From NCBI RefSeq assembly GCF_016026235.1, contig NZ_CP065613.1: DNA of 64,000 nt. One strand, given 5' to 3'. The translations under genes and the position numbers were made by a program. The DNA comes from Escherichia coli. Its GTDB lineage: Bacteria > Pseudomonadota > Gammaproteobacteria > Enterobacterales > Enterobacteriaceae. The number at the start of each line of letters is the position of its first letter. The first letter of the stretch is position 1. Positions 11,117 to 12,529 of the stretch are shown here, piece by piece. A model generated the notes under the pieces. It was not told the origin of the DNA. It did not search any database and saw nothing but the letters and a program-made list of their open reading frames with translations.

Positions 11117-12529
11117 ATGGCAGTAAAGATTTCAGGTGTACTGAAAGATGGGGCGGGTAAACCTGTCGTAAATTGTGCGATTGAACTGCGGGCCAGAAGA
11201 ACCAGTCCGACCGTTGTGGCACACGTTGTTGCCACTTGCGTGACGGACAATAACGGTGCTTATGTGATTGAGGCTGAGCCGGGGTATTACGAGGTTGCGC
11301 TTCACTGTAACGGCTGGCAGCCAACCCGTGTCGGGGATATTGATGTGGCACCGACTGATGCACCGGGGACACTGAACGCGTTTCTGAATGCACCAAAGGA
11401 TGGTGATTTACGTCCGGAGGTGATGAAGCGCTTTGAGGAAATGGTGGCGCAGGCGCAGCAGAGTGCCGGGGCTGCAGCCGGAAACGCACAGCAGACGGCG
11501 CAGGATGTGGCGGCAGCCGCAACGGCCCGTGATGATGCACAACGTTTTGCGGAGAATGCCAGACAGGATGCAGTTGCCACTGCAGAGGACAGAAAGGCCA
11601 CTGCGGAAGACGTGAAAAGCACGGGGAAAAACGCCGTCTTATCCGGTCAGCGTGCACAGGCAGCCGCAGGTTATGCCCGCGCAGCAGAACAGGCCAAAAA
11701 TGACATTGATGCTGCGCTGACCGGCACTCTGAAAACGGCTAACCATCTGTCAGAAATCGCAGCAGCAGGCGAAAAGGCACAACAGAAGTCCCGGGATAAT
11801 CTGGGGCTGAAAAGTGCGGCCACGATGGAAGCACAGAGCGACATTTACGACCGGACAAAAGGCCGTCTGGCGATACCCGGCGCATTCGGCTTTGGGTGTG
11901 CTTTTCTGCCTGAAGATGTTATCCGTTTTGACACTAAGAGTGATTTCCTGGCCTGGGTAAGGAATGCGCTGCCAGGTGAGTATTCCGTTGCTGGCCGCCT
12001 GGGCATCATACCCGACACACGGTTTGAAGGGGTGCTCAGCATCCGGTGGACTGATGCACGCCCTGAGACAACAGAACCGCGGTACAGAGCCAAATCCCTT
12101 ACTTTTTACGGCATTAACGGCCCCATTTATCACACCCGCTACTGCTACTGGCCCATATCCAGACTGACTGACTGGGTGAAAATAAATATAACCACAGAAG
12201 ATATTATTTACAGAATCGTGGCGAGCTCTGTCTGCAACAGATGGGGAGACCCTGACATTGGCGGGCTGATTATTGCTGCGTACCAGGGAGAAGCTGACGG
12301 TGATAAAGTCATCAGACTTGTCAGGGGGCAGTCATACAGAGGCTCACGACTGGGACCGGTGGGGATTTCAGTGCCCAGTACTCCCACCGGAACGCATATA
12401 GCATACCCACAATTTTTCATTACGGGATGTTCAGAGCATTCATTACCGGGGTCATATTGCGCCCTGTCCGGGGTGCCGGATGCACATGTCTCTGGCGCAA
12501 TGCCCGGGCTTTTTATTCGCACATCGTGA
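11117..12529 (+). CDS. stf: Side tail fibre protein Stf-like, lambda-like N-terminus with divergent C-terminal domain
   Basis: MAVKISGVLKDGAGKPV...GYYEV...GTLNAFL resembles lambda Stf N-terminus; start placed at ATG 11117 downstream of the lom terminator rather than ORF-track 11075. Confidence 0.8.
   Translation: MAVKISGVLKDGAGKPVVNCAIELRARRTSPTVVAHVVATCVTDNNGAYVIEAEPGYYEVALHCNGWQPTRVGDIDVAPTDAPGTLNAFLNAPKDGDLRPEVMKRFEEMVAQAQQSAGAAAGNAQQTAQDVAAAATARDDAQRFAENARQDAVATAEDRKATAEDVKSTGKNAVLSGQRAQAAAGYARAAEQAKNDIDAALTGTLKTANHLSEIAAAGEKAQQKSRDNLGLKSAATMEAQSDIYDRTKGRLAIPGAFGFGCAFLPEDVIRFDTKSDFLAWVRNALPGEYSVAGRLGIIPDTRFEGVLSIRWTDARPETTEPRYRAKSLTFYGINGPIYHTRYCYWPISRLTDWVKINITTEDIIYRIVASSVCNRWGDPDIGGLIIAAYQGEADGDKVIRLVRGQSYRGSRLGPVGISVPSTPTGTHIAYPQFFITGCSEHSLPGSYCALSGVPDAHVSGAMPGLFIRTS

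Follow-up and report, generated by a model that had tools for sequence, protein, structure and literature searches.

The side tail fibre (stf) gene at positions 11117..12529 (plus strand, as are the subdivisions of this gene given below) of a 64,000-nucleotide stretch of Escherichia coli DNA (contig NZ_CP065613.1 of assembly GCF_016026235.1; hereafter, the window) appears to encode a complete, modular fibre of the phage lambda type, in which a lambda-like attachment end is combined with a swapped tip of two domains, D1 and D2, and the next gene encodes a helper protein of the DUF4376 class. The probability of this reading as a whole is estimated at about 0.75; the domain layout, family membership, gene order, mosaic junctions and segment-wise divergence on which it is built are direct results. 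The open reading frame (ORF) is intact, with 470 codons followed by a stop codon, and its start, MAVKISGV, aligns with that of lambda Stf. A preliminary description of the window had singled out the interval 11800–12529, i.e., fibre residues 229–470, and reported a 470-aa Stf protein with contrasting halves, which is confirmed. An identical protein is present in RefSeq (WP_197933476.1, “prophage tail fiber N-terminal domain-containing protein”).

The attachment end, the shaft and the departure from lambda

The first 131 residues (11117..11509) constitute a phage_tail_N (PfN) domain, the lambda-like tail-attachment end (PF08400, E-value 2e-48). A BLASTP comparison with lambda orf-401 shows 50% identity over residues 1–121 (E-value 2e-33) and nothing significant beyond, and phmmer aligns residues 1–92 with the solved N-terminus of the lambda tail fibre (9e7m, E-value 3e-22). 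The lambda-like portion had been estimated at about 200 aa; its presence holds, but its length was overestimated, given that the similarity extends over 121 residues by BLASTP and 131 by Pfam. It is followed by a low-complexity, Ala/Gln-rich stretch (residues 132–189; 11510..11683) that resembles lambda in composition only: over residues 132–215, which are likewise Ala/Gln-rich, the alignment shows 34% identity across 55 aa, with a low score that reflects composition alone. The equivalent PCoil region of PfN fibres is, by experiment, a trimeric alpha-helical coil (PMC3368898), and by analogy residues 132–189 probably form a trimeric coiled-coil shaft. The EPclA and EPclB proteins of E. coli O157:H7 (PfN-PCoil-Col-PfC), which share the PfN head and the low-complexity coil with the fibre analysed here and for which trimerisation was demonstrated experimentally in the case of EPclA, represent a further case of one N-terminal module joined to alternative distal parts (PMC3368898). 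They differ in having collagen repeats and the PfC domain (PF06820), both absent here, where the Collagen and Phage_fiber_C (PF06820) domains of Pfam find no match.

With lambda Stf (orf-401 plus orf-314), the fibre shares the genomic slot after J and lom, the phage_tail_N domain and an Ala-rich stretch after it, whereas the distal Phage_fiber_2, Collar and Phage_fiber (HxH) repeats of lambda are not found. Lambda Stf matches the Pfam models Collar, Phage_fiber and Phage_fiber_2, none of which matches this protein, and the C-terminal region contains no HxH motifs. A BLASTP comparison of the distal part with lambda orf-314 yields a best E-value of 0.2. Profile comparisons intended to detect hidden homology to the lambda distal half or to Tfa, the helper of lambda Stf, give probabilities of 0.5–0.6% (0.5% in the hhalign comparison of a 43-sequence family profile with orf-314); the sole piece aligned in the lambda profile comparisons is “…VL.YLG…”, a brief motif from the linker that amounts to no more than a lead. 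Likewise, no lengthwise alignment with canonical Stf- or gp37-type fibres was found. The view that the C-terminal part is unrelated to the lambda distal half, which had been put forward from inspection of the window, is borne out by BLASTP, profile comparison and Pfam alike.

The compositional side of that description also requires adjustment. The lambda repeat motif is indeed absent from the C-terminal part, as was claimed for Gly-rich repeats, but glycine itself is not, at 10.8% of the residues. Several cysteines and aromatic residues had also been noted; there are five cysteines (261, 343, 373, 438, 448), and the share of aromatic residues is 11%, compared with 3.5% in the N-terminal half. 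The cysteines, however, are not conserved across the family: four of the five are located in alignment columns where Cys is outside the three commonest residues, C438 is common to 12 of 38 homologues, and the number of Cys in the C-terminal region of homologues varies from 0 to 5. Because of this lack of conservation in the alignment, the cysteines are incidental and not a family feature; conserved disulfides or a metal site formed by them are ruled out by the same alignment.

The tip family and its two domains

Residues 179–469 match phrog_2636, “tail fiber protein”, with an E-value of 9.4e-214, at positions 269–567 of the 568 positions of the profile. The distal 210–290 residues of the fibre are thereby assigned to a family separate from lambda Stf. 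Neither Pfam nor NCBIfam has a model covering the distal region, and NCBIfam also lacks one for the DUF4376 protein. An exhaustive HMMER search over 1.84 billion representatives (E-value up to 0.001) indicates that the tip family is small, with 102 proteins among the representatives at 50% identity. Its phage-borne members include Rac-SA53 tail3, phiP27, SerU-LTIIb stf and gp76 of the Vequintavirinae phage Av-05, as well as, for D1 only, the jumbo phage Goslar; their identity to the query is 31–37%, which for the first four extends over the whole 241-aa query. These four fibres share the D1–D2 tip with the protein from the window and, as here, a DUF4376 protein, of 187–189 aa, is encoded directly downstream; they differ in the N-termini and shaft lengths, and the tip sequence is highly divergent. 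For example, the Rac-SA53 fibre consists of 1061 aa and includes a Phage_fiber_2 repeat and extra copies of D1, whereas the Av-05 fibre lacks phage_tail_N.

The structure prediction proposed for the distal part in the preliminary description yields a confident two-domain model. The AlphaFold model, a monomer built from the 43-sequence alignment (mean predicted local distance difference test, pLDDT, of 91.4), contains two short linker helices, an alpha/beta D1 and a beta-rich D2. The linker (residues 190–258; 11684..11890), with the conserved pattern …NLGLKSAAT…SDIYDRT.GRLA.PGAFGFG, forms the upstream flank of the variable tip and has the lowest column entropy in the aligned region. It is followed by D1, an alpha/beta “knob” (residues 259–362; 11891..12202), and D2, a beta-rich head (residues 363–470; 12203..12526), with strands between residues 384 and 468 of the model and a conserved final strand, GLFxR. 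The realigned family matches resolve into two sub-units with similar boundaries, at about residues 235–360 (D1) and 365–470 (D2). In longer fibres, D1 occurs in tandem, with the stretch of query residues about 1–150 present two or three times. Every match covering D2 stops no more than about 20 residues short of the C-terminus, and most stop no more than two short of it. In the 43-sequence alignment, R468 is invariant and L465 and F466 are at least 90% conserved.

The fold matches of the AlphaFold model are weak, with 90–118 aligned residues and a root-mean-square deviation of 3.7–7.5, and all of them are phage receptor-binding proteins. Apart from the lambda N-terminus, the phage collar spike 7kjk is the only solved structure that a phmmer search with the fibre detects, and the 43-sequence profile finds no match in the PDB at E-values up to 10; the tip family is without a Pfam model and without a solved relative. 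The C-terminal domains of staphylococcal phage K gp144 and the phi812 receptor-binding protein (5m9f, 9euf) are to be named among the closest systems. Gifsy-1 Stf was considered as a characterised relative and proved uninformative: it is 50.65% identical to Ur-lambda Stf, with the conserved residues scattered across its domains.

D1 and D2, two distal globular domains, most likely form the receptor-binding tip, which replaces the Collar and HxH-repeat distal region of lambda. It is highly improbable that the distal region is instead an enzyme, such as a polysaccharide depolymerase or esterase. Gly, Pro, aromatic and hydrophobic residues make up most of the invariant and near-invariant positions, which also include R468 and S410, and no invariant or near-invariant Asp, Glu or His is present in the 43 sequences; this set is indicative of a structural scaffold with variable surfaces and speaks against an enzyme. 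Furthermore, no Pfam enzyme domain is detected, each of the small domains spans about 100 aa and lacks a beta-helix, and the fold alignments are just as short and loose as stated above. The receptor might be a surface glycan, such as the core or O-antigen of lipopolysaccharide, a guess that is held weakly.

Considering that D2 is located at the extreme C-terminus and that its last strand is conserved, it might be imagined to be an intramolecular chaperone that, like those of T5 pb1 and the K1F endosialidase, is removed by cleavage once the fibre has assembled. Such a role appears barely credible. The fibre has no Pfam match to Peptidase_S74 at E-values up to 0.1, no such domain is found among the fold matches, inspection of the alignment by eye reveals no Ser-Lys pair that would point to autoproteolysis of the S74 type, and a separate putative chaperone gene is present.

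Another possibility is that a longer lambda-type Stf was truncated or decayed, and that the gene for 470 aa is its functionless remnant. Compared with lambda Stf, the length of which we take to be 774 aa, the protein is 304 aa shorter; prophages of Shigella and enteroinvasive E. coli (EIEC) are often defective, and the neighbouring gene J is a pseudogene in one EIEC genome. Nevertheless, this explanation is very unlikely: the ORF is intact and matches the family profile to the final residue, the model is confidently folded throughout, the partner gene as well as J are intact in the window, and independent full-length homologues of 461–474 aa have the identical layout.

The DUF4376 partner and the exchange of the tip

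The gene downstream of stf (12540..13103, plus strand), a putative fibre chaperone or cap, encodes a protein that matches PF14301 (DUF4376) with 62 bits against a cut-off of 25, over residues 90–194 of its 207-aa form. Neither BLASTP nor hhalign detects any resemblance between this protein and lambda Tfa, and it lacks the Caudo_TAP domain (PF02413) that lambda Tfa contains; by sequence, it belongs to a chaperone class different from Tfa/Caudo_TAP. In databases, the gene is annotated as starting at ATG 12480, which gives 207 aa and a 50-nt overlap with stf. The true start probably is GTG 12540, 10 nt past the stf stop codon (187 aa): this is favoured by the alignment of the family, in which homologues are mostly 187–193 aa long and start with M(E/Q)IKK, by the register of PHROG 1141, which begins at residue 19 of the 207-aa form, and by a likely ribosome-binding site, GAGGAA, read from the sequence 6 nt upstream of this GTG (12528..12533, plus strand). 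Clusters at 90% identity with the fibre and with the DUF4376 protein each mix fibre-named and DUF4376-named members and include partial entries of 233–335 aa from Shigella flexneri (“phage tail protein” or “prophage tail fiber N-terminal domain”). This mixed naming suggests that, in draft assemblies, genes were called as fused or frameshifted where stf and the DUF4376 gene overlap.

The DUF4376 gene is located immediately 3' of the fibre gene in all 11 other loci compared (numbered here L001 and L003–L012), which comprise Rac-SA53, Av-05, two distant contigs of metagenomic or isolate origin, of which one is myovirus-like, and seven E. coli prophage loci. Three of these (L003, L007 and L011) contain two successive fibre-helper pairs, a Caudo_TAP pair first and then a phage_tail_N fibre with DUF4376; because the two pairs are consecutive, one virion may bear two fibre types, each with its own helper class. 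The AlphaFold model of the DUF4376 protein is confident (pLDDT 92), and a fold search with it retrieved prefoldin and hundreds of helical hairpins, from which no relationship is drawn.

The same organisation, with a fibre gene followed by a gene for a protein of about 190–240 aa with a C-terminal DUF4376, is found in Alteromonas phages V22 (gp26/gp27) and A5 (gp8/gp9), the fibres of which are described as consisting of a stem, one or more knobs, duplicated in some members, and a distal head (PMC7289586, PMC10579305). In V22, gp27 is needed for a functional gp26 fibre and is absent from the final complex, whereas its A5 homologue, gp9, binds its fibre more stably, and a transient “cap” role has been proposed by the authors (PMC7289586, PMC10579305). 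The chaperone is described as having a helical body and beta-hairpin “tentacles” that resemble intramolecular chaperone domains (PMC10579305). These systems differ from the present one in that the hosts are marine, not enteric, and the dependence on the chaperone is unequal even between V22 and A5. By analogy with V22 gp27 and A5 gp9, the DUF4376 protein from the window most likely aids the trimerisation of the tip and may cap it transiently.

Comparison with other prophage fibres, which had likewise been proposed at the outset, shows tips that are 38–40% identical between flanks of 75–78% identity and supports a mosaic origin, as judged from sequence similarity. In the lambda-like prophage of SC407, the identity is 75% for the N-terminal domain, 28% for the coil, 76% for the linker (residues 190–258), 39% for D1, 39% for D2 and 78% for the chaperone. 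The corresponding values are 48%, 82%, 75%, 40%, 38% and 76% in the myovirus-type prophage of STEC313, and 51%, 30%, 75%, 39%, 40% and 78% in Rac-SA53. At the DNA level, linker matches of 76–81% identity end at 11881–11896 and similarity returns at 12526–12576, so that the gap, 11890–12540, corresponds to a variable cassette encoding D1–D2 (about 11891–12526) between the linker and the chaperone gene. Sharp DNA junctions are located at about 11219, where similarity to lambda ends, 11363, 11445, 11659 and 11890. Moreover, the PHROG 2636 tip is found behind differing N-termini, in lambda-like prophages, in myovirus-type prophages (with baseplate J/gp47) and in the lytic phage Av-05. An exchange of the distal part relative to lambda, i.e., a mosaic structure, is thus well supported by these alignments. 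Switching by an invertible segment or by repeats, as in Mu, P1 or e14, was rejected because no invertase is present and the repeats around the fibre gene are only short and imperfect (16–43 nt).

The preliminary description attributed this mosaic to a swap of the distal part together with a matching tfa. The distal swap holds; the helper, however, is a DUF4376 protein, not a Tfa, and does not co-vary with the tip among close relatives. Taken literally, that description would mean that each tip allele moves with its own matched chaperone and that the two are exchanged as one unit. The tip and the DUF4376 gene are always adjacent, a block that is 95–98% identical among EIEC-type prophages takes in both genes, and in distant pairs both diverge (Av-05, tip 35–38% and chaperone 37%; L005 and L006, tip 30–37% and chaperone 46–48%). 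In the three E. coli prophage relatives compared above, in contrast, the chaperone is 76–78% identical, with 75–76% for the linker, whereas D1–D2 are only 38–40% identical, and DNA similarity is regained no more than about 50 nt from where the chaperone gene starts (12526–12576). Given these identities, the tip varies among E. coli prophages without an equally divergent chaperone, and obligatory movement of matched pairs is unlikely; the chaperone looks generic for the family, perhaps recognising the GLFxR end. A chaperone that recognises a conserved family core or the invariant GLFxR strand would explain the pattern of segment identities. At deeper divergence, co-transfer of tip and chaperone is possible because Av-05, L005 and L006 differ in both.

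These observations are compatible with the following model, in which trimer formation, receptor binding by D1–D2, the chaperone function and recombination as the mechanism of exchange are inferred. Residues 1–131 would attach the fibre to the tail tip in the lambda fashion and, beyond the shaft, the conserved linker, ending in GAFGFG, would lead into D1 (259–362) and D2 (363–470). Host range would be varied by replacement or diversification of D1–D2, with the linker and the chaperone gene supplying homology for recombination. Several considerations weigh against this model: the structure is a monomer prediction of a presumed trimer; the window holds only the tail end of the prophage, and the fibre may never be built into a virion; the parallel with the V22 and A5 fibres is one of organisation; and both the protein and its tip family are known here from sequence and model alone.

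Genomic setting, the ipaH block and implications

The fibre gene is located directly downstream of the genes for the tip attachment protein J (6887–10384, plus strand; 1165 aa; Pfam Ig_J, Phage_Tail_Tip and Ig_GpJ_C) and Lom (10454–11053, plus strand; Pfam Ail_Lom), in the order J-lom-stf. Upstream, there is a complete lambda-type tail module that includes the tail tube protein, tape measure, L, K-like, I and J with all J domains. Downstream of the DUF4376 gene, in the convergent orientation, lies an ipaH gene, a cargo gene in physical linkage with the fibre cassette, that encodes leucine-rich repeats and a NEL E3 ligase domain (13283..15046, minus strand; Pfam NEL, E-value 1e-76, and LRR_TTSS), and beyond it, chromosomal genes for a DUF3300 protein (15507–16595), aconitase B, speD and speE. 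Given the lambda-type tail genes on one side and the chromosomal genes beyond ipaH on the other, the genome is of the Shigella or EIEC type and this region is where its lambda-like prophage has its right end. A 61-aa ORF (15150–15335) that lies between the ipaH and DUF3300 genes shows a weak match to a Mutator-family transposase (PF00872, E-value 3e-4, just under the cut-off) and probably is an insertion sequence remnant at the prophage-chromosome boundary. In E. coli VL7S7 (L001 7791–11270), the annotation of an otherwise near-identical prophage lists J as a pseudogene interrupted by an internal stop, whereas J is intact in the window.

The block that spans the 3' part of stf, the DUF4376 gene, a 179-nt spacer and the 3' NEL half of ipaH (11363–14292) is 95–98% identical in the EIEC-type E. 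coli prophages L001, L007, L010, L011 and L012. It adjoins different ipaH paralogues, namely, ipaHd, ipaHe and ipaH3/Hc, with the 179-nt spacing kept to ipaHd, ipaHe and ipaH3, and occurs in backbones of two kinds, lambda-like (with J-lom) and myovirus-type (with baseplate J/gp47). Of 5426 complete E. coli genomes, only 9 contain this tip allele, each of them at 2–7 places. It appears that the fibre cassette travels jointly with ipaH or that the two are homogenised jointly. Past ipaHe and a methyltransferase gene, L010 (8173–8349) and L012 (8170–8346) contain a truncated “tail fiber assembly protein” pseudogene, which may be left over from an older fibre/tfa pair that the stf-DUF4376-ipaH block displaced. 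A more far-reaching scenario, possible although doubtful, combines three propositions: D1–D2 may be a receptor-binding fold family without a solved or curated relative, a near-generic DUF4376 cap may dock on the GLFxR strand and serve all of the hypervariable tips, which could then be exchanged freely between the linker and the chaperone gene, and in Shigella and EIEC, the block of the stf 3' part, the DUF4376 gene and the ipaH 3' half may be a portable homology cassette that could have spread ipaH paralogues to prophages of differing morphotypes.

The fibre is an ordinary representative of the known modularity of tail fibres, and its tip family, albeit uncharacterised, is already catalogued; the general view of phage fibre evolution is unchanged, and the practical value is modest. 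Two annotation errors are corrected, in that the helper is not a Tfa and its gene probably starts at GTG 12540 and not at ATG 12480, and a small tail-fibre tip family with neither a Pfam model nor a solved structure is brought to attention. The analysis also maps a clean graft point, linker residues 190–258, and delineates a compact tip-plus-chaperone cassette of about 1.2 kb (11891–13103) that could retarget lambda-type particles to Shigella or EIEC.
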